A stretch of DNA of 64,000 bases from positions 21,067-85,066 of the forward strand of contig PLZG01000054.1 of assembly GCA_003152075.1 (NCBI GenBank), written 5' to 3'. This document shows positions 5,627 through 56,236 of the stretch, piece after piece. How positions within the stretch are numbered: position 1 is the first letter of the stretch; the number at the start of each line of letters is the position of its first letter. Made by a program: the position numbers and the translations under genes. The notes beneath the pieces were generated by a model. The model was not told the DNA's origin and made no database searches. It was given only the letters and a program-made list of their open reading frames with translations. The stretch comes from a candidate division FCPU426 bacterium. GTDB taxonomy: Bacteria > Oederibacteriota > Muellerivitia > Muellerivitales > Muellerivitaceae.

Positions 5627-5636
5627 CTAACACTCC

Positions 5637-6593: not shown

Positions 6594-6595
6594 GG

Positions 6596-14499: not shown

Positions 14500-15999
14500 T
14501 TAAGGACAGGTCGTGGCGATGAAATTATCCACGTGCAAGGTGTTGGTCGTCACGATGTTGTAACTGCGGATTCCCGCGCCCCCGGTAGCGTAGAGGGGGG
14601 TCGTGAGGGGGTCAGGCACGCTGCTGAAGATTTGCGTGGTCGCACCATCCATCAGGCCGTCCCCCGATTCGGTCGTCACCCAACCGTTGAAACTGTTGCC
14701 CGAAGCGGTGGCTTTCAAGTGCACCCAGGTACCCAGGGTGTAGGGATTGGAGCTGTTGGTGCCGGGGTAGTAGTAAGTCCCCACCCCAGTTTGTTTCTCG
14801 ATCTCCCAGCGGCTGTTCAAGCCGTTCCACTGGAAGATATAGGCGTAGTAGGAGGCCGGGGTCGAGCGTAAAACCACCCCGAAAACGCCCTGGGCGACGG
14901 TATCCAGCTTGAAGTCGCCTTCCACCCTATAGTCCCCTAAGCTTTGAGAGAAATTGGCGTTGTTGACGATGTCATAGGAATAGGTGATGCCGGGATTGTG
15001 CTGGAACTCACCTCCGGTTACGCTCCAGCCCAAAGCCGCGGCGGTCGTGGGTGTCCAGGCCCCGTCGTAGTAGTCGTAGTTGCCGACGGTGTTGGAACTA
15101 TAATTATCCGAGTAAGTGGTGCCGGAGCAAGTGGGCGTGGGGGAGGGCGTCGCGGTCACCGCGCAGTTATAAGCCGTGAAATTTTTCACGTGCAGGGTGT
15201 TGGTCGACACGATGTTGTAACTGCGGATTCCCGCAGCTCCCGTCGAATAGGGTGTCGTGGTCCCCGGGTCAGTCACGTTGGTGAAAATCTGCACCGTCGG
15301 CCCACCGGCGGGGGTAATCCAAGCGTTCATCAGATTTCCCGGGCCAGCTGTCACTTTCAAGTGTACCCAAGTTCCCAGCGTGTAAGGCGAACTGGAATTG
15401 TTGCCGGGGTAATAATAGGTTCCTACAGCATACTGTTTCTCGATCTCCCAACGGCTGTTCAAGCCGTTCCATTGGAAGATATAGGCGTCGGGTGACCCTT
15501 GGGTGGCCCGGAACACGAGGCCGAATACGCCTTGCGCAACGGTGTCGAGTTTGAAATCGCCTTCCACCGAGTAATCACCCAGGGATTGACTGAACAGGGA
15601 GTTGGTCACCAGCTCGTAGGAATAGGTGATACCGGGGTTTTGTTGAAACTCCCCTCCGGTAACACTCCAGCCAAGCGCCGCGGCTGAGGACGGAGACCAG
15701 GCACCGTCGTAATAAACGTAATTGGCGAGGCTTAAGGAACTTCCGTAGCTGTCCGTAAACGAAGCGCAACCCGGTGTGGAGGTGCTGGTGGCGGTAGCCG
15801 AACCCGTGGGGGTTGAGGTGGGCGGTGTTTGGGTCGGCGAATGCGTGGTCGTTCCACCGGGTACAACGGTTGAGGTGTTTGCTGGCGTGGGGGTAGAAAA
15901 AACAGGGGGAAGGGTGATGCCCGTTGTTCCACAAGCGAAGGGACCTACCATCAAGATCAAACAAAGACTGGCGAAAAGAAAGGCTGAATATCGATTCAT
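14500..15999 (-). CDS. secreted lipoprotein with Thr/Pro linker and two tandem ~230-aa concanavalin-A-like (LamG/DUF1080-type) domains
   Basis: Lipobox-like signal (..MVGPFACG), then a TPTP linker, then an internal duplication (WSVTGGEFQ.NPGITYSY....GDF.LDTVAQGVFG...IFQWNGLNSRWEIEKQ). Domain assignment is tentative. Confidence 0.6.
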   Translation of the reverse strand: MNRYSAFLFASLCLILMVGPFACGTTGITLPPVFSTPTPANTSTVVPGGTTTHSPTQTPPTSTPTGSATATSTSTPGCASFTDSYGSSLSLANYVYYDGAWSPSSAAALGWSVTGGEFQQNPGITYSYELVTNSLFSQSLGDYSVEGDFKLDTVAQGVFGLVFRATQGSPDAYIFQWNGLNSRWEIEKQYAVGTYYYPGNNSSSPYTLGTWVHLKVTAGPGNLMNAWITPAGGPTVQIFTNVTDPGTTTPYSTGAAGIRSYNIVSTNTLHVKNFTAYNCAVTATPSPTPTCSGTTYSDNYSSNTVGNYDYYDGAWTPTTAAALGWSVTGGEFQHNPGITYSYDIVNNANFSQSLGDYRVEGDFKLDTVAQGVFGVVLRSTPASYYAYIFQWNGLNSRWEIEKQTGVGTYYYPGTNSSNPYTLGTWVHLKATASGNSFNGWVTTESGDGLMDGATTQIFSSVPDPLTTPLYATGGAGIRSYNIVTTNTLHVDNFIATTCP

Positions 16000-16134
16000 A
16001 TTACTCTCCCGAAATTTAAATAAACAACCACAGGCTTTTCAAATTGACCTGTACTAAATAATGTTTCTCAGGAGGCTATTATTCCATGAAATTTGAAGAA
16101 AATGGGGGCGATAAAGCCCATAAAAACATGGGTT

Positions 16135-16929
16135 TTAGGGACAGCCCGGGGTCTTCACGGAGAAATTGTCCAGGTGCAGAATGTTGCCGCCCAGGATGTT
16201 ATAGGCTCGGATACCCGCGCCTCCTGCGGTATAGGGAGCCGTGGTTCCGGGATCGCTCACTCCGTTAAAGATGGTCACCGTCGCGCCCAACCCAACGCCG
16301 GGACTTGTTTCAGGGGTCTCATAGCAGTTGAAATTGTTCCCCGATATCACCGCCTTCAAATGCACCCAAGTCCCAAGCGTGTAGGGAGAACCAGAATTCG
16401 TGCCAGGATAATAATAAGTGCCAACCCCGATTTGTTTTTCGATCTCCCAACGATTATTAAGCCCGTTCCATTGGAAAATATAGGCATGAAAGGAGGCCGG
16501 TGTCGCGCGACTGATCACCCCGAACACCCCCTGGCCCACCGTGCCAAGGTTAAAGTCGCCCTCAACCGTGTAATCTCCCAACGATTGGTTGAAAGTGGAG
16601 TTGTTGACGATGGCGTAAGAATAGGTAATGGTGCTAGGCGACCCCACTTGGAATTCCCCGGAAGTAATCTGAATGGACAGGGCCGCGGGGGTGGCAGCGG
16701 TCCAGGACTGATCATAGGTGTCATAGTTGGCCAGGGTGTTACTGCCGTAAGAATCCGTGTAGATGTAACAGGTTGGCGTGGCCGTAGGCGCGTTGGAATT
16801 GGGTAGATTCACAGGGCAGTTTTTCAAGGTGCAGTCGAGGGAAAGAACGGTCAAAAACAGGGACAAGAGGGGAAGGCCCCAGGCTAAAGTTCGCTTCAAT
16901 TTCCTCTCCAGGACATACTTTTGTCTCAT
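16135..16929 (-). CDS. secreted protein with one copy of the same concanavalin-A-like domain
   Basis: Paralog of 14500..15999 with signal peptide and the same IFQWNGLNNRWEIEKQ core. Confidence 0.6.
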   Translation of the reverse strand: MRQKYVLERKLKRTLAWGLPLLSLFLTVLSLDCTLKNCPVNLPNSNAPTATPTCYIYTDSYGSNTLANYDTYDQSWTAATPAALSIQITSGEFQVGSPSTITYSYAIVNNSTFNQSLGDYTVEGDFNLGTVGQGVFGVISRATPASFHAYIFQWNGLNNRWEIEKQIGVGTYYYPGTNSGSPYTLGTWVHLKAVISGNNFNCYETPETSPGVGLGATVTIFNGVSDPGTTAPYTAGGAGIRAYNILGGNILHLDNFSVKTPGCP

Positions 16930-17076
16930 GTATATGATGTTTTTGAAAGACGTTTTATTCCGAAAAAACCTAATTAAACTATTGGCACGGTCGAATTAAG
17001 TCTTTACCGCCCACATCCTAGTATGTTTTAATCAAGCCGACAAATTTTTTTAAAGAAAAATATTGGACATCAAACT

Positions 17077-17433
17077 ATGAAAAAAGCCATCCTTTTCCTC
17101 TATTTACTGGCGGTGATCGCTCCTTTTGGGGCCAATGCCCTCGACATACCCGACTCGGGAACTTCCTATTCCTACCCACTCCCGGCCAAGGCCGGTGGCT
17201 TGGTCAATATTGTTTACACCATGGCTAGTTCGGGGACGGTCCAGGTCCTGGCTTACAACGAATCAAGTGACTTGGTGATGAATTTCACAGATCTCAAAAC
17301 CGCCGGATTACAATCCAGTCAAGTGGACCTCTGTTGCCTGGCCCCTGGAATATATCTTTATTTGGTGATGATCAACTACGATTCGGGCAGTAAGGAAAAA
17401 CTGAAGCCCGCCAAATTCGTGGTTGTCCGCTAG
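17077..17433 (+). CDS. stand-alone FlgD-Ig / T9SS-CTD-like domain protein with signal peptide
   Basis: 118 aa. Signal peptide, then YPLPAKAGGLVNIVYTM..GTVQVLAYNESSDLV...GIYLYLVMINYDSGSKEKLKPAKFVVVR, matching the C-terminal domains of the large secreted proteins in this window. Confidence 0.6.
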   Translation: MKKAILFLYLLAVIAPFGANALDIPDSGTSYSYPLPAKAGGLVNIVYTMASSGTVQVLAYNESSDLVMNFTDLKTAGLQSSQVDLCCLAPGIYLYLVMINYDSGSKEKLKPAKFVVVR

Positions 17434-17508
17434 CGGACAACCCATGTTTACCTTGAAAACAAAATCCACCTGGAAGGAGTTCACTAAAAGTTATTTTATG
17501 AACCCAAA

Positions 17509-17547
17509 ACCCTCGCCCCTTGCGGGAGAGGGTAGGGTGATGGGTGT
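17509..17547. repeat. family-A GC-rich hairpin repeat (AACCCTCGCCCCTTGCGGGAGAGGGTAGGGTGAGGGG)
   Basis: Near-identical copies at 27519, 30311 and 57611 (reverse), plus variants at 20766 and 43518. Lies in the 5' leader of the gene at 17630. Confidence 0.8.
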
Positions 17548-17629
17548 GGAAAAACCGATTGTTGCAACCCTCCCCCCAACACACTTCCCTCGAGGGAGAA
17601 ATTGTAAAGCTATTAAAAGCATTGACGAA

Positions 17630-18994
17630 ATGACCTTTAAAAAATTTTCCCAAAGTCTCGCCTTTTGCTCGCTACTTCTAGCGGCCCCTGCTGTCTTTGC
17701 CGCCACCGAATTAGTCCCCCCGAGCGCCCAACTGGCTTTTCCCCTTGAAAACCAGGGCGGCTCGGCACGGGCCAACGCCATGGGGTCGGCCTTCGTGGCC
17801 GTGGGTGGCGACGTGTCCGCGCTTTCGTGGAATCCGGCGGGCCTTGCCAGCCTCACTTCCGCCCAATTGGCCCTCCACCATAATTTTTACCTGCAGGATT
17901 TAACGCAGGACACGCTCCTTTTCGCGACTCCGCAGGGGGATTTTGGCAGTTGGGGCCTTTCGGCCAGTTACCTTGGTTACGGCAGCCTGCAGGGCCGGGA
18001 TTCCAACGGCGTGGTGACAGGCAGTTACAACGCGGGAAGATGGGGCGGTGAAATCGCCTGGGCTCATGTCCTATTCCAGGGTTTTGCTATTGGACTGGGG
18101 TTGAAGGGGAACCTGCTGGATTTATCGGGGGCGGATTACTCGAATATCGCGGGGGATGTGGGAGCCTTGTGGGACGTCACTTCCACCTTCCACGTAGGCG
18201 CTTCTTATGACAATTGGGGCACGGATATCAGCGGAAACATCGCCAATTCGGTCATCCGTTTTGGGGGAGCCTATGACTGGGCTGTTTCTTTCAACAACCA
18301 GGCCCTACTCGCCGGGAGCCTTTTCTTGGAGCCTTTCGGCGTCGCCCGATTGAACATAGGGGCGGAAGATGTGTTCAACTCTTTCCTGTCCCTGCGCGCG
18401 GGCTATGTGGCGGGCTTATCCTCAACACTTCTTCAGGGCTTGACCGGCTTGACGGCCGGGTTGGGTTTAAAGCTGCAGGATTTCAATTTGGATTACGCCT
18501 ACTCCCCCTTCGGCGACCTGGGAACTTCCCAAAGGGTGAGTCTCACTTACCATTTCGAGGGGGCGGCCCCCAAAACCACACCAGTTCCCGGTTCCTCCAC
18601 CAAAAGCACGCAGACAAAAGCCACACCGACTCCGGCCAAAGCCATCCCGGTCACCGTTTATGCCACCCCACCGCCCGGCCCCACGGCTACTCCCGCTCCC
18701 GCGGAGCCAAAGAAGGATGTGGAAAAATTGAGGCTTTTATTCAGTCTTCCGGAAAATCAAAATGATTCCGCTGGGACATCCGACCTGGATTGGGACCAGA
18801 AGGTCCAAGCCGACAAGGACGCCATCGATAAGGACGCGAAGAACCTTTCGGCCTGGTATGAATTGGCTATGCTTTATTACCAAAAGGGCAAAAAAGAAGA
18901 CGCCATCCAATGTTTTGAGCAGACCTTACGCTTGAAACCCGACAATGAAAAGTTGAGGAATTGGCTCAAAAAATATAAAGAACGGCAACAATAG
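17630..18994 (+). CDS. FadL/PorV-like outer-membrane beta-barrel with Pro/Thr linker and C-terminal TPR tail
   Basis: Start refined to MTFKKFSQSLAFCSLLLAAPAVFA, a signal peptide; the track ORF 17423.. runs through repeat A1. GGSARANAMGSAFVAVGGDVSALSWNPAGL hatch-like motif. Ends with a TPR-like WYELAMLYYQKGKKEDAIQCFEQTLRLKPDN. Confidence 0.65.
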   Translation: MTFKKFSQSLAFCSLLLAAPAVFAATELVPPSAQLAFPLENQGGSARANAMGSAFVAVGGDVSALSWNPAGLASLTSAQLALHHNFYLQDLTQDTLLFATPQGDFGSWGLSASYLGYGSLQGRDSNGVVTGSYNAGRWGGEIAWAHVLFQGFAIGLGLKGNLLDLSGADYSNIAGDVGALWDVTSTFHVGASYDNWGTDISGNIANSVIRFGGAYDWAVSFNNQALLAGSLFLEPFGVARLNIGAEDVFNSFLSLRAGYVAGLSSTLLQGLTGLTAGLGLKLQDFNLDYAYSPFGDLGTSQRVSLTYHFEGAAPKTTPVPGSSTKSTQTKATPTPAKAIPVTVYATPPPGPTATPAPAEPKKDVEKLRLLFSLPENQNDSAGTSDLDWDQKVQADKDAIDKDAKNLSAWYELAMLYYQKGKKEDAIQCFEQTLRLKPDNEKLRNWLKKYKERQQ

Positions 18995-19057
18995 TGCAAT
19001 TATTTCATAAAGTTTGGAATAACTGGGCGGTCCAAATCATTATTTAAGTGAGGGGCC

Positions 19058-19624
19058 TTGAGCGAAACGGAGCTGATCCAACAAGTTTTAGCGGGGGATG
19101 AGGGGGCGAAGACCCGTCTCTATGAGGAACACACCCATCGGTTGAAGCCGATTTGCGTACATTTCTTGGGCTACCAGGATTCGGACATCGATGACATCGT
19201 CCAACAAACTTTCCTGATCGCCTTCCAAAAGCTTCCTGAATTTGAACCTCGAAGCACCCTCTACACCTGGCTTGCCCATATTTGCGTGAACCTTTGTTAC
19301 GAAAGGATCCGTCGGCGGAAAAAATTCCTGGTGAGCCTTCAGGAGGATTTGGAACAAATGACGGCGTCCCTGGTGCACTCGCGGGAACATGACAAAGGCG
19401 TGAAGGACGAAGATGGCAGGAAAATGCAGCTTCTGGAGAAGTTGATCCAGACGATGAGCGAGAAATGCCGGAAAATCATCGAGCTCAGGGACAAGTCGGG
19501 CGAGAGTTACGCCGACATTGGTAAGGTAATGAAGATTCCCATTGGAACAGTGATGTCCCAATTGGCCCGGTGCCGGGAAACGTTGAAACAGATGGTGCAG
19601 AGCAGCCTGAAGGAAGGTTTGTAA
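19058..19624 (+). CDS. ECF-family RNA polymerase sigma factor (sigma-70 regions 2 and 4)
   Basis: TTG start. YQDSDIDDIVQQTFLIAFQKLPEF (region 2) and SYADIGKVMKIPIGTVMSQLARCRE (region 4). Its TAATG overlaps the next gene. Confidence 0.85.
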   Translation: MSETELIQQVLAGDEGAKTRLYEEHTHRLKPICVHFLGYQDSDIDDIVQQTFLIAFQKLPEFEPRSTLYTWLAHICVNLCYERIRRRKKFLVSLQEDLEQMTASLVHSREHDKGVKDEDGRKMQLLEKLIQTMSEKCRKIIELRDKSGESYADIGKVMKIPIGTVMSQLARCRETLKQMVQSSLKEGL

Positions 19625-20382
19625 TGGCCGATTTATTGTTGGAATTTTTTAAGCGGGACTTAACCGAGGCCGAGGAACAACAGCTGGCGAACCTGATCGC
19701 GGGAGCGCCCCAGCAATCCTTGCGTTTCGCGGAACTGGCCCATGCCGCTTACCTTCAAACGGGCCTGCCCGATACGGGTGGGGGTAACGGAGGCAATGGC
19801 TCGGGCGGTTTTGGCGGCGGAGGAATGACCCATCTGATCGGCCCCATTCTCCTGAAAAGCGTGGTGCTATTGACGCTCACGGGCCTCACTGCTTATGGAA
19901 TATTCCGCTTGCTTCATGCGGCCCCGATTCCTTCCGTTTCCTTGCCTCCCGCGGTCATTCAAAATATTGCTCCCGCAAAACCACAACCTGTTATTCCCAA
20001 GGTGATTTCCGTTACGAAGCCGGCAAAGCCCGCGCCCCAGGCGCCCCTCCAAACCCTTCCCTTGAAGGCCTTGGCCAAGCCGGGCATGGTTAATCCGGTG
20101 GCCTATGATTCCGCTAAGAAATACGAGGGCCTGGACATTATGGTGGAACAGAAAACCTCCGGTTTGTTGACCGTGCGGGCCCTGGACAGCGGCAAAAACG
20201 AGGTGCGGTTGCTCTTCGCCGGCATGTTGAAGCCCGGCAAATGGGATTTCGTATGGGATGGAAAGACGGAAAATGGGGAACCGGCCCAGCCTGGAACCTA
20301 CCGGGTGGAAGTGCAGTCGGGCAAGGAAGTTTTGACCAAGGCAGTTGTGATCCGCGGTGAAGCCGTCGCCAGCCAGAAGTAA
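19624..20382 (+). CDS. anti-sigma-factor-like single-pass membrane protein with periplasmic FlgD-Ig/CTD-like domain
   Basis: Start MADLLLEFFKRDLTEAEEQQL, conserved with 48563 paralog. One TM segment, a Pro/Ala-rich linker, then C-terminal LLTVRALDSGKNEVRLLFAGMLKPGKWDFVWDG...GTYRVEVQSGKEVLTKAVVIRGE. Confidence 0.7.
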   Translation: MADLLLEFFKRDLTEAEEQQLANLIAGAPQQSLRFAELAHAAYLQTGLPDTGGGNGGNGSGGFGGGGMTHLIGPILLKSVVLLTLTGLTAYGIFRLLHAAPIPSVSLPPAVIQNIAPAKPQPVIPKVISVTKPAKPAPQAPLQTLPLKALAKPGMVNPVAYDSAKKYEGLDIMVEQKTSGLLTVRALDSGKNEVRLLFAGMLKPGKWDFVWDGKTENGEPAQPGTYRVEVQSGKEVLTKAVVIRGEAVASQK

Positions 20383-20513: not shown

Positions 20514-20765
20514 GGGTTTTCTTGGGGTAAAAATATAAAGGCCCGGGGATTTGCCCCCGGGCCGCTATATGGTGCTTCTTAGATAACGCGCTGAATAAAG
20601 GTCTTTATACCGCCGGGAGTCTCTAGCGCATCCCGCGCTCATGTTTTCCCCGCTGACTAATAATGTTTTTCGGCGAAGGTTTATTCCAAAAATAATTTAA
20701 TTTTCGGGGAAATTTTAGGGTGGTTTTGAGCTCAAAATAAGGCAAGAACCGTAAATCAAAATAAT

Positions 20766-20865: not shown

Positions 20866-21369
20866 ATGCCCGAAACCATCCCCAAAACCTGCCCCCGATG
20901 CGACCAGCCCCTGACGGGTACGGAAAGAGTCTGCCCTTCCTGCCGGAAGCCGCTGGTTAAGACGGAGGGGTTAGCCTCTGTCGGGGCCAAGGGGCCTGTC
21001 TGCCCCATCTGCAAGATTCCCGTTTATCCCGCCACCCTGGACAGCCATGAGGTTATTCACTGCGCCGAATGTGAGGGGTTGGGAGTCAGCCGGGAAGTCA
21101 TGATGAAGCTACAGCCCCAGGGGAAGAAAGAAGTGCAGATCGGCCCCGAAGAGCGGGAACATAAGACTCCCGCTTTCTTTGAGCCCCGCAAGAAGCCGTC
21201 CTTTCTCATTTGCCCCTTTTGCGGAAAGCGGATGGAACCCGTGAAGCTGGGGAAGACGGAATTGGACGTTTGTGAAAAGTGCGCTGGCCTTTGGCTGGAA
21301 GGCCCCAAGTTAGAAATGTTTCAGGATATTATCGGGCCCTATAAGTGGAAGGTGATTAAGCAGAAGTAA
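20866..21369 (+). CDS. tandem zinc-ribbon protein (2x zf-TFIIB-like Cx2C-x17-Cx2C...GxWxDxxEL)
   Basis: CPICKIP..CAECEGLGVSREV and CPFCGKRM..CEKCAGLWLEGPKLE. Paralogous to the C-terminal tail of the M48 peptidase at 41614. Confidence 0.6.
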   Translation: MPETIPKTCPRCDQPLTGTERVCPSCRKPLVKTEGLASVGAKGPVCPICKIPVYPATLDSHEVIHCAECEGLGVSREVMMKLQPQGKKEVQIGPEEREHKTPAFFEPRKKPSFLICPFCGKRMEPVKLGKTELDVCEKCAGLWLEGPKLEMFQDIIGPYKWKVIKQK

Positions 21370-47919: not shown

Positions 47920-47948
47920 GGAATAAAATCCCGGGTTCTCCCACTAAC
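47920..47948 (+). promoter_or_regulatory. putative ECF-type promoter GGAATAAAA-N8-TCTCCCACTAAC upstream of the sigma/anti-sigma operon
   Basis: The same motif with identical spacing is found at 54902..54930. It lies about 30 nt before the ATG at 47980. Confidence 0.45.
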
Positions 47949-47979: not shown

Positions 47980-48570
47980 ATGGGTCATGGAGGGCCTTTG
48001 GAAGACCGGCAACTGGTTGAAAAACTGTTGGCTGGGGACGCGGAAGCGGAGCGCGTTTTTTTCCATGCCCACCGGGACCGCCTTTACAAGGCCTGCGTCT
48101 ATCTCCTGGGTTACCAGGATCCGGACGCCGAGGATGTGACACAAGAAGCTTTTATCGTGGCCTTACGAAAACTCCCGGAATTTGAGTTCCGTTCCAGCCT
48201 TTTCACATGGCTTTACCGCATTTGCGTCAATCTTTGTTACGAACGAATAGATAAGCGTTGGAGGCTTGTGTCCCATTTGCAAGAGGAACTGGAGGACTTG
48301 GCAGGCCCCCTTTCGGGAGACCGACAGGAAAGGGAAGAAGAAAACGCCCTTAGGAATAAAAAATTGGAATTGTTGGATGGCCAAAAGAAATTGCTGGGTG
48401 CCCCCTGCCGGGACCTGTTGGATTTGAGGGATGTCCAAGGGAAAAGTTACGCCGAGGTTTCAAAATTATTAAAGGTTCCGATGGGAACGGTGATGTCCCG
48501 TTTAGCCCGATGTCGGGAATCCTTGAAGCAACTGGTTATGCAGGCTTTGGAAGGCAAAAAGAATGGCTGA
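47980..48570 (+). CDS. ECF-family sigma factor (paralog of 19058)
   Basis: YQDPDAEDVTQEAFIVALRKLPEF and SYAEVSKLLKVPMGTVMSRLARCRE. Confidence 0.85.
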   Translation: MGHGGPLEDRQLVEKLLAGDAEAERVFFHAHRDRLYKACVYLLGYQDPDAEDVTQEAFIVALRKLPEFEFRSSLFTWLYRICVNLCYERIDKRWRLVSHLQEELEDLAGPLSGDRQEREEENALRNKKLELLDGQKKLLGAPCRDLLDLRDVQGKSYAEVSKLLKVPMGTVMSRLARCRESLKQLVMQALEGKKNG

Positions 48571-49360
48571 TTTAATCGAAAAATTCTTCGAGAAAGACCT
48601 CGCCGAGGCCGAAAGGCAAGCTCTGCGTGAGGAGCTATTATCCAAAGATGGGGCCGCCGAAAAATTCGTGGAAAAAGCCGAGGCTTCCTATAAGGAATTC
48701 GGGTTGCCCGAACCGCGTTGGACAGGGCCGGATGTTTTCAGGCAATCCGCCGAACCGGGGCTTACACAATGGCTTTGGCTCTTTGTGCTCCTCGCTGGTG
48801 CCATTGGGGTTTCAATGTGGTGGTATTTCGCTAAAGGTAATCCAACCAACGAAAACTCGTTATCTTCCTTTGGCTCGGAACAAGCCGCGCCAATTGTTTC
48901 CCTTTCCCCCAAGCCCGTGAAAAAGAAACATGTCCCGGTTGCGAGTCAGCCTATAACTGTGGCTCAAATGCTTCCGGTGACAAAACTCAAAGCAAACGTT
49001 GAAGCGCCTCTAACGATCCAGCCTAGTTTGCCTGTCCAGGTTCAAACCACCTCCACTTTACCTTTGCTCGTCAGTCCCAAGTTTACACCGGTTAACGTGG
49101 ATCAAAATCCCAACAAGCCTTTTTCGAGCTTATCGGTGGTATTGCATCGGTCCACGCCGGGTTTCCTGAACGTACGATTGTTGGATTCGGCGGGGAGGGA
49201 GTTGGTGCCGCTTTATCGGGGTAATCTGCCTCCGGGCACCTGGGCTTTCGAGTGGAACGGTTTGTTAAAAGATGGCCGCTTAGCCCCGCCCGGCAAGTAC
49301 GGGATTGAAGTAAGGGCCGGCTCTTGGGCGCAGGTTAAAGAGGTTTTGATTCCAAAATAA
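48563..49360 (+). CDS. anti-sigma-like membrane protein with C-terminal FlgD-Ig/CTD-like domain (paralog of 19624)
   Basis: MADLIEKFFEKDLAEAERQAL.., TM segment, linker, then NVRLLDSAGRELVPLYRGNLPPGTWAFEWNG..GKYGIEVRAG. ATGgcTGA overlap with the sigma gene. Confidence 0.7.
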   Translation: MADLIEKFFEKDLAEAERQALREELLSKDGAAEKFVEKAEASYKEFGLPEPRWTGPDVFRQSAEPGLTQWLWLFVLLAGAIGVSMWWYFAKGNPTNENSLSSFGSEQAAPIVSLSPKPVKKKHVPVASQPITVAQMLPVTKLKANVEAPLTIQPSLPVQVQTTSTLPLLVSPKFTPVNVDQNPNKPFSSLSVVLHRSTPGFLNVRLLDSAGRELVPLYRGNLPPGTWAFEWNGLLKDGRLAPPGKYGIEVRAGSWAQVKEVLIPK

Positions 49361-50746: not shown

Positions 50747-53461
50747 GTGGACAAAGGTTTTGACATGAAAAAAATTGAAACTTTTTTCCTCAAAACCCCA
50801 GTTATTGGAACCATTACTCTTATGGGTTTAATTTTTTTGCAGTTGCTTGGTATAGAAATTTTCAAAAATTGGTTTAAGCCCTATCCTATTTTAAAGACGC
50901 AGTTGATTTCTCCCAATTCTGTGGCTGCCATGAAACGGGAATCATCCTACGGCCAACTTCCGCTTTGTTTTGAGCCCAACCAAGGTCAAACCGATCCACA
51001 AGTCAAATTTATTGCCCGAGGCAGTGGCTATAACCTTTTCTTAACTTCCGAAGAGACGGTTCTGGTTTTAAACCAACCGAATAAGGTTTCTTCGGACAAG
51101 TTGAAATTGTTTTGGCATTCCAAGGCCCATTCCATCCAGATGCAACCCCAAAACTCTACTGTTTTGAGAATGAAACTAGTCGGTTCTAATTCCCGCCCGA
51201 CTATGGAAGGTTTGGAAAAACTATCAGGTATCAGCAACTACTTCATCGGAAACGACTCGGCAAAGTGGCGTACTAATGTTCCCCAATACAAGAAGGTGGC
51301 GATGAAGAATGTTTATCCGGGAATCGATATGGTTTATTACGGCAACCAAAGGCATTTGGAATATGACTTCGTGGTAGCCCCGGGGGTAGACACGAAGGTG
51401 ATAAGACTGGCTTGGAATGGGCCTAAAGGGGCCAAAGTTGACACTAAAGGCAATTTGGTTTTTAAAACCAAAAATGGCCAAATTGTGTTCAAGGAACCGA
51501 TAATTTATCAAGTAAAAGACGGGGAACGAAAGATAATCCAGGGTCGATACGCCATGGCAGGGAATCATCAAGTTGGTTTCGAAGTGCGGGATTACGATTC
51601 CTCCCAACCTTTGGTTATTGATCCTCAATTGGACTATTCCACCTATTTGGGCGGGAGCGGAGAAAACTATGGTTTTAAAATTGCAGTGGACACAAATGGT
51701 GATGCGTATGTGACGGGATACACAAACTCCACTAACTTCCCCACGACGACAGGAACCTATCAGAATATTTTTGGTGGAACCTATGATGTCTTTGTGACCA
51801 AGTTGAATTCAATGGGTACGAGTTTAGTGTATTCCACATATTTGGGAGGAAGTAGTGAGGACTATGGCGAGGGTATCGCAGTAGACACAAGTGGTAATGT
51901 TTATATTACCGGGTGGGGCAATTCTACAAATTTTCCAACGACCTCCGGGGCTTATCAAACTACCTATGGTGGGGGGCCTTATACCACATTAATCACGAAA
52001 TTGAATTCAACCGGCACAGGTCTGGTTTATTCCACCTATCTAGGTGGAAGTGGCGAAAACGAAGGACACGATATTACTGTTGATTTATCTGGAAACGCCT
52101 ACATCACGGGCATTGCCTCTACTAATTTTTTAACAACGGTTGGAGCTTATCAAACCACTTATGGGGGCGGACTTTGGGATGCTTTTGTCGTGAAATTAAA
52201 TTCGTCAGGAACTGGCTTGTTTTATTCCACTTATCTGGGTGGAAATAGCGAAGACGAGGCATTTGGAATCGCCGTTGATGTATCTGGATACGCCTATGTG
52301 ACCGGAACTTGCGCCGCCACTTTCCCAACAACAGCTGGGGCTTATCAAACTGTGATAGGTGGATCTTATAACGCGTTTGTTGTGAAATTAAATTTGACAG
52401 GAACTGGCTTGGTTTTTTCCACTTATTTGGGAGGAATTAATCAAGACAATGGTTATGGAATTGCGGTGGACGCCAGTGGAAACGCTTTTGTAACTGGATA
52501 CACCTTTTCCCCGAACTTTCCCACCACCGCAGGTGCCTATCAGACGGTTTTTAGTGGTGTCGAAGATGCCTTTGTGGCCAAGCTGAACTCGACAGGGACC
52601 GGTTTAATCTATTCCACGTTTTTGGGAGGTAGCAGCCCAGGCAATGGTTATGGTATCGCGCTGGACACCAGTGGAAACGCCTATGTGACAGGGCAGACCA
52701 GCTCTACGAATTTTCCGATTACAAGTGGAGCTTATCAAACTACTAATAATGGGGGCATTAAGGCTTTTTTAACTAAATTAAATACAACGGGTTCAGCTTT
52801 GATTTATTCAACCTTCTTTGGTGGGAACGTGACTGATTATGGTAATGGAATCGCGGTTGATTCAACTGGATCCGCTTACATCACTGGATATACTGATTCC
52901 TCCAATTTTCCTACAACAGCTGGCGCTTATCAGACTAATTTGAATGGTTCATATGATGCTTTTGTAGCAAAGTTCGACGCTTCCGACTTTTACACGCCGA
53001 CCACTACTCCAACCAACACTTTAACCCATACCCCGACCAATACTCTAACGCCAACCATTACAAATACATCAACTCCTACAAGTACTTTGACCAATACTCC
53101 AACAATAACTTTCACCCCAACAATAACCCTGACTCCCACTTCTACACCCACCCCCAGCTATTTAGGCCCAAACCCACCAACACCCGGAACCTCCTTTGTT
53201 TATCCCTCGCCGGCCACGGGTGGGACGGTCAACATCGCTTATGACATGCAGGAAAGCGGTACGGTTCAAATTTTAGTTTGGAACGAGAGTGCGGAACTGG
53301 TGGCGGATATGAGTCGAAACCAATGGATCGGGACCCAAAAGATGAGCATTAACATCCAAGGTTGGGCAAGGGGTGTGTATTTTTACAAGGTCGTTTTTCA
53401 CTATGCCTCCGGCAAGGTCGAAAGACTCACCCCCGGTAAATTCCTGATTGGCTGGTGGTAG
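50747..53461 (+). CDS. secreted SBBP (beta-propeller repeat) protein with Thr/Pro linker and C-terminal FlgD-Ig/CTD-like domain
   Basis: At least 10 repeats of YSTYLGGS..D.G.GIAVD.SGNAYVTG.T.S.NFPTT.GAYQ. C-terminal YPSPATGGTVNIAYDM..GTVQILVWNESAELV...GVYFYKVVF...KFLIGWW. Confidence 0.75.
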   Translation: MDKGFDMKKIETFFLKTPVIGTITLMGLIFLQLLGIEIFKNWFKPYPILKTQLISPNSVAAMKRESSYGQLPLCFEPNQGQTDPQVKFIARGSGYNLFLTSEETVLVLNQPNKVSSDKLKLFWHSKAHSIQMQPQNSTVLRMKLVGSNSRPTMEGLEKLSGISNYFIGNDSAKWRTNVPQYKKVAMKNVYPGIDMVYYGNQRHLEYDFVVAPGVDTKVIRLAWNGPKGAKVDTKGNLVFKTKNGQIVFKEPIIYQVKDGERKIIQGRYAMAGNHQVGFEVRDYDSSQPLVIDPQLDYSTYLGGSGENYGFKIAVDTNGDAYVTGYTNSTNFPTTTGTYQNIFGGTYDVFVTKLNSMGTSLVYSTYLGGSSEDYGEGIAVDTSGNVYITGWGNSTNFPTTSGAYQTTYGGGPYTTLITKLNSTGTGLVYSTYLGGSGENEGHDITVDLSGNAYITGIASTNFLTTVGAYQTTYGGGLWDAFVVKLNSSGTGLFYSTYLGGNSEDEAFGIAVDVSGYAYVTGTCAATFPTTAGAYQTVIGGSYNAFVVKLNLTGTGLVFSTYLGGINQDNGYGIAVDASGNAFVTGYTFSPNFPTTAGAYQTVFSGVEDAFVAKLNSTGTGLIYSTFLGGSSPGNGYGIALDTSGNAYVTGQTSSTNFPITSGAYQTTNNGGIKAFLTKLNTTGSALIYSTFFGGNVTDYGNGIAVDSTGSAYITGYTDSSNFPTTAGAYQTNLNGSYDAFVAKFDASDFYTPTTTPTNTLTHTPTNTLTPTITNTSTPTSTLTNTPTITFTPTITLTPTSTPTPSYLGPNPPTPGTSFVYPSPATGGTVNIAYDMQESGTVQILVWNESAELVADMSRNQWIGTQKMSINIQGWARGVYFYKVVFHYASGKVERLTPGKFLIGWW

Positions 53462-53530: not shown

Positions 53531-54835
53531 ATGATGAATCGAAATTCGTCTGAATTTATGGCAATCACAAATTTGTTGGTTCTGACGACGGTTGGCTTGC
53601 TTCACGCCCAACCCTCGTCTTTGTTACAGCCGTTGGATGACACGGGCGGGTCGGCCAGGGCCGCCGCGATGGGGTCCGCTTTTGTGGCGGTGGCGGATGA
53701 TTCCTCGGCATTGTTATGGAATCCGGCGGGATTGGGAAAACTTCAAACGGGCCAACTGGCTCTTCATCACAATTCCTGGTTGGTGGATACCCTTCAAGAA
53801 TCCTTTACCGTTGGTATACCCATGGGAGATGCCGGTGGCATTGGAGTCATGGCGACTTTCCTGGATTACGGTACTTTCCAGGGACGGGATCCCAATGGAG
53901 CGATTACTCCCAATTACAACGCCAACAAATGGGGTTTCATGCTGGGGTGGGGCAAGGAATGGGCCCCTGGGTTTTCCGCTGGTTTGGCATTGCGAGGGGG
54001 TTTTCAATCGGCCTTGGGCAACTCCTACAGTTTGTGGAGCGGCGATGTGGGCTTTTTGTATAGCCCAGACCCCCAATTGCGGTTTGGCGCGGCCCTCGTT
54101 AACTTTGGGGGGAACCAATCCGGGGGATGGGTGGCTTCCGCCATTCGGGCGGGAGTTTCCTATAAACCAGAATGGAAAGGCCCCCATGGTCTTTTGTTTT
54201 CGTTGGATGGCACAGTGGAACCCCAAGGGGTAAATCGCGTGGGGTTGGGAGTCGAATACTCGTTCCAATCTAAATATTTCCTTCGGGCGGGGTACCAGGT
54301 TTACGAACAGAACAACGAAATCCAAGGGCTTCAAGGACTAACTGCCGGGGCTGGTATCCAATGGAATGGTTTTGAGTTGGACTATGCCTTCCTACCTTAC
54401 GGGGATTTGGGAACTTCTCATCGTGTTAGTTTGAGTTATATGTTTCCCTCTTCAAAAGCTAATTCCCAACCTGCCGTGGGTTCTTCAACAGCTTCCCCCA
54501 GCCTGAGTGGCCCTCCGATTACTTTTAAGCCGGAGCCGGGGTCGGGGACTAACAAGAATACTTTGACCCTCCAATTTGACATACCGCCCGATTTTGTCGC
54601 CCAAGGCCAAACCTTAGAAGCCCAGGGGCACCGGGTGGAAGCCATGCGGCTTTATCAAGAAGCCATTATTAAGGACTCTCAAGACTTGATGGCATGGGAG
54701 GCTTTGGGAATGAGCTATTACCAATTGGGACAGAAAGTTTACGCAATTCAGTGTTTTGAGCAGGTTTTGAAACTTCGGCCTGAGGATAAAGCCTTTTCCA
54801 GTTGGTTTGAGAAATATAAGGCATCCACCCCCTGA
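53531..54835 (+). CDS. FadL/PorV-like outer-membrane beta-barrel with C-terminal TPR tail (paralog of 17630)
   Basis: GGSARAAAMGSAFVAVADDSSALLWNPAGL, and C-terminal YYQLGQKVYAIQCFEQVLKLRPED. Confidence 0.65.
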   Translation: MMNRNSSEFMAITNLLVLTTVGLLHAQPSSLLQPLDDTGGSARAAAMGSAFVAVADDSSALLWNPAGLGKLQTGQLALHHNSWLVDTLQESFTVGIPMGDAGGIGVMATFLDYGTFQGRDPNGAITPNYNANKWGFMLGWGKEWAPGFSAGLALRGGFQSALGNSYSLWSGDVGFLYSPDPQLRFGAALVNFGGNQSGGWVASAIRAGVSYKPEWKGPHGLLFSLDGTVEPQGVNRVGLGVEYSFQSKYFLRAGYQVYEQNNEIQGLQGLTAGAGIQWNGFELDYAFLPYGDLGTSHRVSLSYMFPSSKANSQPAVGSSTASPSLSGPPITFKPEPGSGTNKNTLTLQFDIPPDFVAQGQTLEAQGHRVEAMRLYQEAIIKDSQDLMAWEALGMSYYQLGQKVYAIQCFEQVLKLRPEDKAFSSWFEKYKASTP

Positions 54836-54901: not shown

Positions 54902-54930
54902 GGAATAAAACCGAGCTTTCTCCCACTAAC
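54902..54930 (+). promoter_or_regulatory. putative ECF-type promoter GGAATAAAA-N8-TCTCCCACTAAC upstream of the NHL lipoprotein gene
   Basis: 21 of 29 positions identical to 47920..47948 with identical spacing; about 40 nt before the ATG at 54971. Confidence 0.45.
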
Positions 54931-54970
54931 TCATGAGACTAAAAAACTTTTAAAAATTTAGGGGTCCATT

Positions 54971-56236
54971 ATGAAATTTCGGGGTTTTTCAAGATTCTTT
55001 TTGACGATGACTTTTGCGGGCATGATCATTAATGCTTGTAGTACAGGTTTCACTTTGCCCCCTTTGGCCCCTACGCCCACCGCGACCCCTATTTCATCAA
55101 CACCTTCTTCCACCCCAACGGTTACGGGATTAAGCGCGGCCACGAACACCCCGACTAAAAATCTAACCCTTACACCAACCATAACCCTTACTTTCGCGCC
55201 AACAAATACCGTGACGGCTACCTCCACCAGCACCCCGACTTCAACTTCCTCATGCAACAACGGCGGATTGGTGACGACCTGGGCAGGGTCGGGGGCAACT
55301 GGGTCCGCCAATGGAACTGGAACCGCCGCGTCGTTCAATTTGGTCTATGGAGTCGCGGTCGATGCCTCCGGAAACGTTTATGTCGCGGAAGCGGGTAACG
55401 AGGATATCCGCAAAATTAATCCCGGGGCAGTAGTGACGACGCTGGCCGGGTCAGCTGGGGTTACGGGGTCCGCCAATGGAACCGGAACAGCCGCGTCGTT
55501 TAATGGCCCGTCCGCCGTCGCGGTCGATGCCTTTGGGAACGTTTACGTCGCGGATGTATGGAACGAACTCATCCGCAAAATCACACCGGGGGGATTGGTG
55601 TCGACGCTGGCGGGGTCGGGGGCCATCGGGTCCGCCAATGGAACCGGAAACGCCGCGTCGTTCTATTATCCCCTCGGAGTCGCGGTCGATGCCTCCGGGA
55701 ACGTTTACGTGGGGGATGCCGCCAACAACTTGGTCCGTAAAATTACCCCCGGGGGAGTGGTGACGACCCTGGCGGGGTCAGGGGCGATTGGGTCGGCGAA
55801 CGGTAACGGCACTTCCGCGTCCTTCTACGGACCCGCAGGAGTCGCGGTCGACTCATCGGGAAATGTTTATGTCGCGGACCGCAACAACAACATGATCCGT
55901 AAAATTACTCCCGGCGGGGTAGTCACCACCTTCGCGGGGTCAACCTCCTCAGGGTCGTCCGACGGGACGGGAACCGCCGCGTCGTTCAGTAATCCTCATG
56001 ATGTTGCTGTCGATTCATCGGGGAATGTTTACGTCGCGGATACTTACAACAACCTGATTCGTAAAATTACCCCTGGGGGAGTGGTGACGACCTTGGCGGG
56101 AGGAGGGGTTTGTTGTTACACCGACGGAACCGGAACTGCCGCGTCGTTCAGTTTGCCCTATTCGGTCGCGGTTGATTCCTTCTGTAGTGTCTACGTTGCG
56201 GATACGGGTAACCACGTTATTCGGAAAATTCAATGA
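54971..56236 (+). CDS. lipoprotein with Thr/Pro linker and 6 NHL repeats
   Basis: Lipobox ..IINACS. Repeats of GSANGTGTAASF..P.GVAVD.SGNVYVAD..NN.IRKITPGGVVTTLAG. Confidence 0.7.
   Translation: MKFRGFSRFFLTMTFAGMIINACSTGFTLPPLAPTPTATPISSTPSSTPTVTGLSAATNTPTKNLTLTPTITLTFAPTNTVTATSTSTPTSTSSCNNGGLVTTWAGSGATGSANGTGTAASFNLVYGVAVDASGNVYVAEAGNEDIRKINPGAVVTTLAGSAGVTGSANGTGTAASFNGPSAVAVDAFGNVYVADVWNELIRKITPGGLVSTLAGSGAIGSANGTGNAASFYYPLGVAVDASGNVYVGDAANNLVRKITPGGVVTTLAGSGAIGSANGNGTSASFYGPAGVAVDSSGNVYVADRNNNMIRKITPGGVVTTFAGSTSSGSSDGTGTAASFSNPHDVAVDSSGNVYVADTYNNLIRKITPGGVVTTLAGGGVCCYTDGTGTAASFSLPYSVAVDSFCSVYVADTGNHVIRKIQ

Follow-up and report, generated by a model that had tools for sequence, protein, structure and literature searches.

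The window analysed here, a stretch of 64,000 nucleotides from a candidate division FCPU426 bacterium, holds two ECF sigma/anti-sigma pairs, and raises the question of what signal such a pair might receive from a PorV-like outer-membrane barrel encoded nearby. A preliminary description had proposed that the sensor is a cargo-type C-terminal sorting domain (CTD) on the anti-sigma factor, acting as a decoy. The open reading frames it listed were all borne out, and its link of the sigma pair to the barrel and the CTD protein is supported; for a cargo-type sorting domain as decoy sensor no support was found.

Two paralogous sigma/anti-sigma pairs

The first pair consists of a 188-aa ECF sigma factor (sigma 1; 19058..19624, + strand) with Sigma70_r2 and r4_2 domains, and a 252-aa anti-sigma factor (anti-sigma 1; 19624..20382, + strand). 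Sigma 1 scores 77.8 bits on TIGR02937 (cut-off 42.9) and reaches none of the equivalog cut-offs. In the second pair, a 196-aa sigma factor, recognized as a paralogue by comparison with sigma 1 (sigma 2; 47980..48570, + strand), is followed by a 265-aa protein with the architecture of anti-sigma 1 (anti-sigma 2; 48563..49360, + strand; 104 bits on the family HMM). As described previously, the pairs are paralogous (44% identity between the sigma factors, E 1e-60; 32% between the anti-sigma factors, E 5e-30), and stop and start codons overlap in both, by 1 nt (TAATG) in pair 1 and by 8 nt (ATGGCTGA) in pair 2. The same overlap is seen computationally in other loci where the coordinates of the reading frames resolve it.

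We infer that the protein encoded 3′ of sigma acts as its anti-sigma factor. The plan previously attributed to both such proteins was recovered: a common N-terminal motif is followed by a single TM helix and then by a disordered linker rich in Pro, and the C-terminus is a beta-sandwich. In anti-sigma 1 these correspond to a three-helix domain (residues 1-46), a TM helix (74-98), a tether (about 99-165) and a FlgD-type Ig domain (170-243; about 20131-20352). The N-terminal domain gave no sequence match to Pfam or PDB anti-sigma families, and FecR and DUF4880 domains are absent, with single weak matches only (E 0.04-0.1).

Three types of Ig-fold domain

One and the same domain had been assigned to five proteins of the window, which fails at the family level: there are three types that have a single Ig fold in common. 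The tails of a 118-aa protein and of an SBBP protein, both described below, form a separate Por_Secre_tail-type subfamily, which we named CTD* and in which a YP(S/L)P start is conserved. The terminal domain of a giant protein, with 47 bits on FlgD_ig and a Por_Secre_tail score under threshold, is a third type, besides CTD* and the anti-sigma Ig domain.

The FlgD_ig model matched the C-terminus of anti-sigma 1 at 38.9 bits, over the cut-off of 27, and that of anti-sigma 2 at 26.2 bits, slightly under it. Of the two models suggested earlier for these C-termini, it was thus FlgD_ig that matched (20 of 20 family members tested) and not Por_Secre_tail (0 of 20). Family-specific HMMs for the anti-sigma Ig domain and for CTD* gave no cross-hits, the local CTDs have a YPxP-type start that the anti-sigma domain lacks, and the nearest neighbours of the anti-sigma domain, in both sequence and structure, are true FlgD proteins. 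Domains of the anti-sigma type also occur as 8-20 tandem copies within giant proteins, and therefore behave as a generic Ig module rather than a terminal signal. The anti-sigma domain is a FlgD_ig member, unlike the conserved cognate CTD encoded next to the barrel. Two features are nevertheless reminiscent of a CTD, namely the position of the domain at the extreme C-terminus and a remote, colinear profile-profile match to the CTD* of the small protein (P 4e-5, probability 69%).

PorV-like barrels and their cognate CTD proteins

HMM searches, AF2 modelling and Foldseek identified barrel 1 (17630..18994, + strand) as a PorV/PorQ-family 14-strand outer-membrane barrel followed by a linker and a TPR domain. 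It scores 114.7 bits on NF033709 (the NCBIfam PorV/PorQ family; cut-off 90), and 86 and 50 on the PorQ and PorV models, each under its equivalog cut-off. All 14 strands are present in the AF2 model with pLDDT >90, and its top Foldseek matches are the F. johnsoniae PorV chains 8gl6_F (E 5e-13), which is PorV within the type IX translocon, and 6h3i_F (E 3e-12), with FadL ranking behind (E 4e-9). Barrel 2 (53531..54835, + strand), again with linker and TPR, scores 135.6 bits against the same cut-off of 90 and shares 41% identity with barrel 1 over 422 aa (E 1e-98), so the earlier call of PorV-like barrels is upheld for both by HMM and for barrel 1 also by fold. The linker of barrel 1 (residues 315-383) is disordered and Pro/Thr-rich and holds a conserved beta-strand motif, EKLRLLFSLP; the C-terminus (residues 386-452; about 18785-18985) is a two-repeat TPR domain. 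TPR and linker strand are conserved in 15-16 of 16 barrels. In other relatives an OmpA domain replaces the TPR, which shows the barrel tail to be periplasmic and modular.

Directly 5′ of each barrel lies a gene for a CTD* protein. The one before barrel 1 encodes a 118-aa small secreted protein (17077..17433, + strand), which has a Sec signal peptide and a CTD* of the Por_Secre_tail type, and nothing else. Its own PF18962 score of 16 bits is below the cut-off; 12 of 13 orthologues match Por_Secre_tail (best E 4e-9). Its resemblance to the C-terminus of the SBBP protein was confirmed (44.6% identity, E 6e-22), but it is not merely another bearer of that domain: a stand-alone CTD* gene is found in 13 other loci, always directly 5′ of the barrel gene, and the closest 16 homologues are all 107-162 aa long. 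The 118-aa protein is the cognate partner of barrel 1, belongs to the conserved core of the module, and suits the role of CTD ligand better than the anti-sigma Ig domain does. Barrel 2 has a full-size cognate partner, a DUF7948-SBBP beta-propeller protein with a C-terminal CTD* (50747..53461, + strand; Por_Secre_tail 32.2 bits, cut-off 27; CTD* HMM 123 bits).

A recurrent four-gene cassette

About 20 distinct loci, most of them from FCPU426 genomes, have the order CTD* gene, barrel-TPR, sigma, anti-sigma. Given this recurrence the linkage is real and beyond chance; it persists among relatives down to about 30% identity. The gene directly 5′ of the barrel always ends in CTD* (90-137 bits on the family HMM), encodes either a 107-142-aa stub or a 409-904-aa protein, and in several loci overlaps the barrel gene by 4 nt. 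The CTD*/barrel pair in turn adjoins the ECF sigma and anti-sigma genes, although one locus (L019) has sigma and anti-sigma and no barrel within 10 kb.

Every barrel that adjoins a sigma/anti-sigma pair carries the TPR tail, and sigma and anti-sigma are absent from the loci of three TPR-less relatives (L025, L026 and L027). This co-occurrence, found computationally, is only partly independent, because the TPR-bearing loci were mostly retrieved through anti-sigma searches. The TPR-less barrels of L025 and L026 keep the CTD* gene, and the neighbour in L027 is a faint Por_Secre_tail match. One of these three loci retains merely a FlgD_ig fragment.

Mirror-tree analysis revealed co-divergence of CTD* with the barrel (r 0.91); the anti-sigma Ig domain co-diverges both with the barrel (r 0.87) and with CTD* (r 0.83). 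Partial correlations, conditioned on sigma, ranged from 0.36 to 0.77, and shared descent is known to inflate the partial Mantel test; for the Ig domain the values were 0.57 with the barrel core, 0.56 with CTD* and 0.36 with the TPR. The lower value for the TPR favours direct contact of the Ig domain with the barrel or CTD, although the TPR is a short and nearly invariant domain. Taken together, the data support a functional link of the sigma/anti-sigma pair to the PorV-like barrel and the CTD protein.

Promoters and the predicted regulon

Nearly all loci have the motif GGAATAA-N15-CAyTAT upstream of the sigma gene. A PWM, for which <0.02 sites are expected per window at a score of at least 18 bits, found four strong sites in the window (27.7-34.1 bits). 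One of them, GGAATAACTGGGCGGTCCAAATCATTAT (19016..19043, + strand; 27.7 bits), ends 14 nt ahead of the start codon of sigma 1, for which it predicts autoregulation. The top site (34.1 bits) is the promoter (20687-20660) of a candidate sigma-dependent small RNA of about 120 nt (20530..20687, - strand), which has a terminator hairpin of 10 pairs, 9/10 G-C (20563-20540), followed by TTTATATTTT. Conservation of both elements extends to L005, L006 and L007, and an Rfam search matched no family. The remaining two sites, of 30.5 bits each, precede predicted regulon members on the - strand: a 264-aa lipoprotein (16135..16961; promoter 16961-16934) with a sub-threshold ConA-like lectin domain (Laminin_G_3 22.8 bits, cut-off 27.6), and a 499-aa lipoprotein (14500..16085; promoter 16085-16058) with two copies of that domain and 65% identity to the former over 206 aa. 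Other loci likewise have the motif in front of divergent, predicted lipoprotein genes, among which those of L005, L006, L007 and L010 are homologues of the window lipoproteins. At locus 1 it is absent before the small-protein and barrel genes.

A sigma-2-type promoter, GGAATAA-N15-CACTAA (47920..47947, + strand), stops 32 nt short of the start codon of sigma 2. The only other exact match in the window (two found, 0.09 expected) lies at 54902-54929, before an NHL-repeat lipoprotein gene at 54971-56236 (54902..56236 together, + strand).

Discussion

We tentatively propose, with somewhat less than even confidence, that the four parts make up a trans-envelope signalling module, with the barrel/CTD* pair reporting to the anti-sigma factor. 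By analogy, the PorV/PorQ-type barrel would hold the CTD* of the protein encoded directly upstream, be it a full-size surface protein or, as in most loci, a signal peptide plus CTD* stub. The barrel contributes a long flexible periplasmic tether with the beta-strand motif and the two-repeat TPR, and the anti-sigma factor a long Pro-rich periplasmic tether ending in the FlgD-type Ig domain. We infer that the signal is the state of the barrel/CTD* complex, which the TPR tail would pass to the Ig domain; this contact would control the stability of the anti-sigma factor or its hold on its partner. The released ECF sigma would then transcribe from GGAATAA-N15-CAyTAT its own operon, the lectin-like and NHL lipoprotein genes and the small RNA. 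Such a module looks like an undescribed route by which the state of the cell surface could reach the transcription machinery. Several observations weigh against it: the Ig domain co-diverges less with the TPR than with the barrel core or CTD*, the TPR co-occurrence is only partly independent, the ECF motif is absent before the small-protein and barrel genes of locus 1, L019 has its sigma pair and no barrel within 10 kb, and the N-terminal domain of the anti-sigma factor lacks a sequence match to known anti-sigma families in Pfam and PDB.

Other readings have to be weighed. That the second protein is an unrelated membrane-anchored Ig protein, co-translated with sigma by chance, would suit the failure to match anti-sigma domains in Pfam and PDB; it is highly improbable given the N-in single-pass architecture and the stop/start overlap, which each window pair shows and which recurs in all further loci where it can be resolved. 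The decoy proposal, in which the Ig domain mimics a CTD and vies with cargo CTDs for binding to the barrel, whose occupancy sets sigma activity, could draw on the remote profile match, the extreme C-terminal position and the co-divergence with the barrel core. We consider it improbable, since the domain belongs with FlgD by HMM and by nearest neighbours, shares neither cross-hits nor the YP(S/L)P start with CTD*, and is found in tandem inside giant proteins. The encounter of PorV with CTDs takes place on the outer side, at the translocon.

Alternatively, the Ig domain could sense, for instance, envelope stress or polysaccharide, with sigma regulating only the nearby surface-protein genes and the neighbourhood reflecting co-regulation. 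FlgD_ig is indeed a widespread generic module, local lipoproteins make up the predicted regulon, and sigma 2 precedes the CTD* protein and barrel of locus 2, which may share its operon. At locus 1 and in most loci, however, the sigma promoter follows the CTD*/barrel genes, which themselves lack an ECF motif, and co-regulation requires neither strict gene order, nor TPR co-occurrence, nor co-divergence, which makes this reading unlikely. A little less unlikely is that free periplasmic CTD*, from a stub or unexported cargo, is itself the ligand of the Ig domain and the barrel serves as a sink, so that build-up of unbound CTD* reports a saturated or failing sorting route and releases sigma. PorA of P. 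gingivalis has a CTD that binds PorV and, in the periplasm, activates PorY-PorX-SigP (PMC12152298). The reduction of the partner to a bare CTD in most loci implies that the CTD itself is the functional part, and the Ig domain co-diverges with CTD*, albeit in a test inflated by shared descent. This scheme leaves unexplained why the TPR is present exactly where sigma and anti-sigma occur.

Among known systems, SigmaE-RseA also has a single-pass anti-sigma factor that holds an ECF sigma factor, takes its signal from outer-membrane protein traffic and includes a sigma-dependent small RNA in its regulon, as predicted for the FCPU426 module. The cassette differs from it in the absence of a DegS/RseB-type sensor, in the periplasmic domain and in having a dedicated outer-membrane partner. 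The Ig-like domain of the FlgD hook cap (PF13860) is shared with the anti-sigma factors, where it is membrane-tethered, without the tudor-like part of FlgD and outside any flagellar context.

The Fec/Pup systems, composed of a TonB-dependent transducer, a FecR-like anti-sigma and a FecI-like ECF sigma, resemble the cassette in a barrel whose extra periplasmic signalling extension is present only beside a sigma/anti-sigma pair, in a single-pass anti-sigma factor with a periplasmic C-terminal domain and in an autoregulated ECF sigma (predicted here). Their receptor, however, is a 22-strand TonB-dependent barrel with an N-terminal STN domain, whereas the FCPU426 barrel is a 14-strand FadL/PorV-type one with a C-terminal TPR extension, and the anti-sigma factor has no FecR or DUF4880 domain.

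In type IX secretion (T9SS), genes for CTD substrates are genetically linked to those for cognate shuttle barrels (PMC12618676), as in PorZ-PorQ, PorU-PorV, SprB-SprF and other type B CTD/PorP-like pairs (PMC12618676, PMC9143113). Here, too, a CTD-protein gene adjoins that of a dedicated PorV/PorP-type barrel, whose PorQ-model score exceeds its PorV-model score. Known linked pairs join a type B CTD to PorP/SprF, whereas the FCPU426 pairs join a type-A-like CTD to a PorV/PorQ-like barrel. We know of no T9SS shuttle with a TPR tail, nor of one to which a sigma/anti-sigma pair is attached.

Among working precedents, the PorA-PorV-PorXY-SigP circuit of Porphyromonas gingivalis comes closest, where the PorA CTD binds PorV and activates PorY-PorX-SigP (PMC7712824, PMC12152298), and where membrane-tethered PorA still works as an activator (PMC12152298). 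By analogy, the two would have in common a small CTD protein with a PorV barrel, the CTD as signalling ligand, an ECF sigma as output and the proposed monitoring of the sorting route. The FCPU426 cassette is set apart by the TPR tail on its barrel, by a membrane Ig anti-sigma factor placed directly beside sigma, with no PorY/PorX two-component step in between, and by a CTD protein that is often the CTD alone, whereas PorA has a FimH-like domain. Unlike in the Porphyromonas circuit, all four genes form one cassette, in a lineage outside the Bacteroidota.

A conserved gene cassette

The main result of this analysis is a conserved gene neighbourhood. Across about 20 distinct loci, genes for a barrel with a TPR tail, an ECF sigma factor and a putative anti-sigma factor follow a gene whose product ends in a C-terminal domain (CTD) of one Por_Secre_tail-type subfamily, here called the cassette CTD. 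The loci come from metagenomes and species-representative genomes, and anti-sigma identity among them goes down to about 30%. In locus 1 of the window, all on the plus strand, the order is a 118-aa protein (17077-17433), barrel 1 (17630-18994), sigma 1 (19058-19624) and anti-sigma 1 (19624-20382). Locus 2, also on the plus strand, has the alternative order with the sigma pair first, as does one locus elsewhere (L021): sigma 2 (47980-48570), anti-sigma 2 (48563-49360), an SBBP propeller (50747-53461) and barrel 2 (53531-54835). All ORFs named in the preliminary description were found at the coordinates given there, and the proximity of sigma pairs to PorV-like barrels that it had pointed out in this stretch recurs across the whole set of loci. 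The host belongs to the candidate phylum FCPU426, alias "Ca. Luxamiota".

Immediately preceding the barrel gene there is always a gene that ends in the cassette CTD (90-137 bits with the family HMM); in several loci the two genes share 4 nt (ATGA). In 14 loci this preceding gene encodes a signal peptide and the cassette CTD only (107-142 aa); elsewhere it is of full size, being an SBBP propeller (904 aa), an NHL protein (411 aa) or a protein of 409 or 545 aa. This constancy argues that the 118-aa protein is, as far as sequence can tell, a minimal form of the barrel's cognate partner and not a by-stander. A single related locus (L019, sigma and anti-sigma genes at 9436-10671) has no barrel or cassette CTD gene within 10 kb; its anti-sigma frame is apparently split into two ORFs, making it a possible pseudogene.

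Sigma factors and putative anti-sigma factors

Paralogy runs through the whole of both loci: it includes the barrels, with 41% identity over 422 residues (E 1e-98), and the relation already proposed for the sigma pairs is borne out by identities of 44% between the sigma factors (E 1e-60) and 32% between the anti-sigma proteins (E 5e-30). Both sigma proteins consist only of regions 2 and 4, match Sigma70_r2 and r4_2, and pass the general ECF model TIGR02937 (77.8 and 82.6 bits, cut-off 42.9). Since neither reached the cut-off of any equivalog model, we assign them to no named ECF group.

The anti-sigma gene lies directly downstream of the sigma gene. The stop and start codons overlap as had been described, by 1 nt (TAATG) in pair 1 and by 8 nt in pair 2; a 4-nt overlap is seen in other loci with resolved gene calls, and in L007-L009 the choice of start codon gives either an 8-nt gap or 4 nt of overlap. 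Aligning 20 relatives of the anti-sigma proteins brings out conservation at both ends: a 50-residue N-terminus (invariant F9, D12, L13, E17, L21 and G47-L48-P49) and a C-terminal domain, with a hydrophobic helix and then a variable, Pro-rich stretch between them. The AlphaFold2 model has three helices at residues 3-46 (pLDDT 80-90), a transmembrane helix at 74-98, disorder at about 104-151 and a beta-sandwich at 170-243 (pLDDT 84-91). Alignment and model thus agree with the shared N-terminus, transmembrane helix and Pro-rich linker noted earlier. No Pfam or PDB sequence match to known anti-sigma domains (zf-HC2, RskA, RseA_N, DUF4880) was found, and DUF4880 appears in single family members only (E 0.04-0.1). 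The four-part architecture, the structural model and the recurring gene overlap with an ECF sigma factor together make "anti-sigma factor" a strong inference for the downstream membrane protein.

A word-indexed search had returned 21 matches and made the family look tiny, a picture overturned by an exhaustive profile search that recovered more than 200 clusters (203 representatives at 50% identity, E<=1e-30, nearly all full-length).

Three families of C-terminal Ig-like domains

The preliminary description had assigned one and the same sorting domain to the C-termini of five proteins: the two anti-sigma factors, the 118-aa protein, the SBBP propeller and a giant protein. What they have in common is an Ig-like sandwich superfold; at the family level they fall into three distinct families, that of the anti-sigma factors being of the FlgD type. 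FlgD_ig (PF13860, cut-off 27) scores 38.9 bits in anti-sigma 1 and 26.2 bits, marginally under the cut-off, in anti-sigma 2. It is matched by 20/20 members of the anti-sigma family (best E 2e-12). Por_Secre_tail (TIGR04183 / PF18962), by contrast, matched neither anti-sigma protein of the window in Pfam or NCBIfam searches, nor any of the 20 family members at E<=1. Of the two assignments that had been envisaged for these C-termini, the FlgD_ig one thus stands and the Por_Secre_tail one does not.

The 118-aa protein family shows the opposite pattern, with Por_Secre_tail in 12/13 orthologues (best E 4e-9) and FlgD_ig in 1/13, and the window's own member scores 16 bits on Por_Secre_tail. The SBBP tail reaches 32.2 bits with the Pfam model (cut-off 27) and 20.5 with TIGR04183 (cut-off 23). 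Family HMMs draw the same line: in the window, the anti-sigma HMM finds only the two anti-sigma proteins (134 and 104 bits), and the small-protein HMM only the 118-aa protein (137 bits) and the SBBP tail (123 bits); on these two models the giant protein has E 0.23 and E 2.1, respectively. BLASTP found no significant similarity of the anti-sigma domains to the tails of the cargo proteins (best E about 6). Profile-profile comparison of the anti-sigma and small-protein families gave a colinear, weak similarity (P 4e-5, probability 69%; controls P about 0.56).

The anti-sigma domain is an Ig-like beta-sandwich at the extreme C-terminus, and the protein lacks a signal peptide, so it is not a Sec-exported soluble protein. 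In the exhaustive profile search its FlgD-type domain recurred as 8-20 tandem copies within giant proteins, which is how a generic Ig module behaves. Judged by its profile matches, the periplasmic domain of the anti-sigma factors is not, at family level, a cargo-type sorting domain.

The window's giant protein (43952-47821, plus strand; 1289 aa), directly upstream of sigma 2, has a DUF11-type region at its N-terminus and contains, besides Pro/Thr/Ser/Asn repeats of about 700 residues, three domains of the FlgD_ig type. Of these, the last resembles the CTDs of PorZ and PorU (47 and 23 bits). No ECF motif was found before its gene and no cognate barrel was identified.

PorV/PorQ-family barrels with a TPR tail

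The barrels had been called FadL/PorV-like. Both pass the PorV/PorQ family model NF033709 (114.7 and 135.6 bits, cut-off 90), and a 66%-identical relative is named PorV/PorQ family protein by NCBI. Neither reaches an equivalog: scores were 86-95 bits against a cut-off of 220 for PorQ and about 50 against 250 for PorV, so that the PorQ model outscores the PorV model on both. AlphaFold2 models barrel 1 as a FadL-like barrel of 14 strands, mostly at pLDDT above 90, from which a disordered Pro/Thr linker (315-383) leads to four C-terminal helices that make up two TPR repeats (386-452). The best Foldseek matches of this model were the PorV chains of the F. johnsoniae type IX translocon (8gl6_F, E 5e-13; 6h3i_F, E 3e-12; TM-score 0.63-0.64), with FadL ranking behind (E 4e-9).

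The TPR, with a QCFE motif, is present in 16/16 barrels. An alternating hydrophobic strand motif, EKLRLLFSLP (v.V.l.F.lP), is found in the linker of 15/16; in barrel 1 it lies at 18700-18780 of the window (residues about 368-382), inside the low-complexity periplasmic linker and just before the TPR. It could serve as a donor strand for an Ig-like partner. A 383-aa protein encoded nearby (21528-22679, minus strand) has an N-terminal TPR with BamD/YfiO-like matches and a C-terminal region weakly similar to barrel 1 (E 2e-5), and may represent a TPR and a beta-barrel in reverse domain order. No type IX core genes were found in the 64-kb window.

Promoters and a candidate small RNA

At nearly every locus, the sigma start codon is preceded, at a distance of 14-46 nt, by the motif GGAATAA-N15-CA(T/C)TAT, and we infer that this motif is an autoregulatory promoter read by the locus's own sigma factor. 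Copies on the other strand precede predicted lipoprotein genes that are transcribed divergently. Scanning the window with a weight matrix gave four sites of 27.7-34.1 bits, where fewer than 0.02 sites of at least 18 bits are expected. One precedes sigma 1, two precede the genes of two predicted paralogous lipoproteins of 499 aa (14500-15999, minus strand) and 264 aa (16135-16929, minus strand), and one is at 20687-20660 on the minus strand. The same scan found no ECF-type motif in front of the locus 1 genes for the small protein and the barrel.

The two lipoproteins are 65% identical over 206 aa. Both have a Pro/Thr linker after the lipobox, a sub-threshold ConA-like lectin or 3-keto-disaccharide-hydrolase-like domain, and an end of the form N(F/L)S(V).TCP. 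Their homologues are motif targets in four other loci (L005, L006, L007 and L010).

The minus-strand site at 20687 is the strongest ECF site of the window. About 100 nt past it lies a strong terminator, whose hairpin has 10 pairs (9 of them G-C) and is followed by a T run. Three further loci (L005, L006 and L007) have kept both the promoter and the terminator, and no Rfam family matched. We read this unit (20530-20687, minus strand), convergent with the anti-sigma 1 gene, as a candidate sigma-dependent small RNA of about 120 nt, the RNA itself at 20530-20652. RNAduplex predictions of its targets among the translation start regions of the window had implausible, unranked energies and were discarded.

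The motif before sigma 2 is a variant ending in CACTAA. The variant promoter GGAATAAAA-N13-CCCACTAA has two exact sites in the window (0.09 expected), at 47920-47947 before sigma 2 and at 54902-54929 before an NHL-repeat lipoprotein gene (54971-56236), all on the plus strand. Because the variant occurs exactly twice, before these two genes, it suggests that the paralogous sigma factors read slightly different -10 elements.

Other genes in the window

Upstream of locus 1, the minus-strand stretches 2319-11183 and 11184-14264 carry genes for three large tandem paralogous membrane proteins of about 770 aa, each with only a weak YfhO-like C-terminal match, and neighbouring GT2, lysyl-PG-synthase-TM-like and GT1 genes. 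This content suggests that the region (2319-14264) is a surface glycan or lipid modification cluster. Locus 1 is followed by a gene for a 167-aa multi-CxxC zinc-ribbon protein (20866-21369, plus strand), and about 2 kb upstream of the giant protein is a gene (41614-43365, plus strand) for an HtpX-like M48 protease to which zinc-ribbon repeats of a similar kind are fused. A link of these genes to anti-sigma proteolysis is conceivable.

How the barrel might signal to the sigma factor

Relatives of the barrels carry a TPR tail, an OmpA domain or no tail. Every barrel found adjoining a sigma pair has the TPR, an association that is only partly independent as a test, since the TPR loci were mostly retrieved via the anti-sigma protein. 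Three TPR-less barrels (L025, 7001-9096; L026, 3628-7777; L027, 4970-7942) have no sigma or anti-sigma neighbour. The tail-less barrels of L025 and L026 neighbour an ice-binding-like protein and an SBBP protein, both with the cassette CTD; that of L027 neighbours a 672-aa protein with a faint Por_Secre_tail match only. The L026 locus, from a 2.88-Mb genome, adjoins integrase and toxin-antitoxin genes, has kept only a FlgD_ig fragment and looks like a decayed cassette of the locus 2 type. The presence pattern of the TPR tail is that of the signalling domain in TonB-dependent transducers, and by this analogy the tail appears to mark signalling competence.

CTDs are bound by PorV-type barrels in type IX secretion. 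The barrel and its cassette CTD partner would form the outer-membrane sensor. The co-occurrence of TPR and sigma pair leads us to favour, tentatively, a model in which the barrel's TPR tail contacts the anti-sigma Ig domain; the barrel tail and the anti-sigma protein each have a tether of about 70 residues, enough to meet in the periplasm. Close behind, though in itself rather unlikely, comes an arrangement in which the free cassette CTD is the ligand of the anti-sigma Ig domain. The preliminary description had instead proposed that the anti-sigma domain is a decoy competing with cargo CTDs for the barrel. We consider this improbable: the domain belongs to another family than the cargo CTDs, it lacks the YPxP start, and the anti-sigma protein is tethered in the inner membrane.

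Distance-matrix correlations, a kind of test inflated by shared descent, show all parts to co-diverge and do not separate these three contacts: r was 0.91 for cassette CTD and barrel (partial r given sigma 0.77), and for the anti-sigma Ig domain it was 0.87 with the barrel core (0.57), 0.83 with the cassette CTD (0.56), 0.75 with the TPR (0.36) and 0.66 with its own N-terminal domain (0.15). These figures fit a contact of the anti-sigma protein with the outer-membrane partners.

Taken further, contact through the TPR tail would make the PorV-like TPR barrel a new class of transducer in the outer membrane, one that has no relation to the TonB-dependent kind and makes an ECF sigma factor respond to the occupancy of a sorting-domain receptor. 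The protein that consists of a CTD alone would then be a dedicated signalling ligand or dummy cargo, and the same sigma factor would drive the small RNA, giving a sigmaE-like homeostatic loop for CTD-based surface sorting outside Bacteroidota. We regard this full scheme as possible, if doubtful. If true, a secretion signal domain would have been turned into a pure signal.

Relation to known systems

Literature searches turned up no paper that brings anti-sigma factors and FlgD_ig or FlgD Ig-like domains together. We came across no account of a FlgD-type anti-sigma factor, a TPR-tailed PorV-like barrel or this cassette, and papers on FCPU426 yielded nothing on secretion. With the cassette, the use of PorV/PorQ-type barrels and CTD-type domains extends to a little-known soil and peat phylum, and the periplasmic tails of barrels in this family (TPR, OmpA or none) prove to be interchangeable.

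How CTD-based surface sorting is monitored is barely understood, PorA-PorXY-SigP being the one worked case. In P. gingivalis, PorV is bound by the CTD of the small protein PorA, and the periplasmic PorA CTD signals through PorY-PorX to the ECF sigma factor SigP, thereby reporting on the secretion route (PMC7712824, PMC12152298). The authors of these papers, published in 2020 and 2025, expected PorA equivalents in other organisms. The cognate shuttle barrel is often genetically linked to genes of CTD substrates (PMC12618676). The cassette would be a PorA equivalent of the expected kind, wired more simply and complete in itself: an operon-sized unit would provide the ligand, the receptor barrel and the sigma/anti-sigma pair, with the PorA-type logic apparently hard-wired into it. 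This self-containment and the clear promoter motif make it suited to reconstitution in a model host.

The other close parallel is Fec-type signalling, where a TonB-dependent transducer with an N-terminal signalling domain acts on a FecR-family anti-sigma factor. Here, however, the barrel is of the PorV/FadL type and the anti-sigma protein has no significant FecR or DUF4880 match, so the likeness is functional only. On the evidence of its sequences, the cassette is best described as a new variant of ECF trans-envelope signalling, not as a new kind of system.
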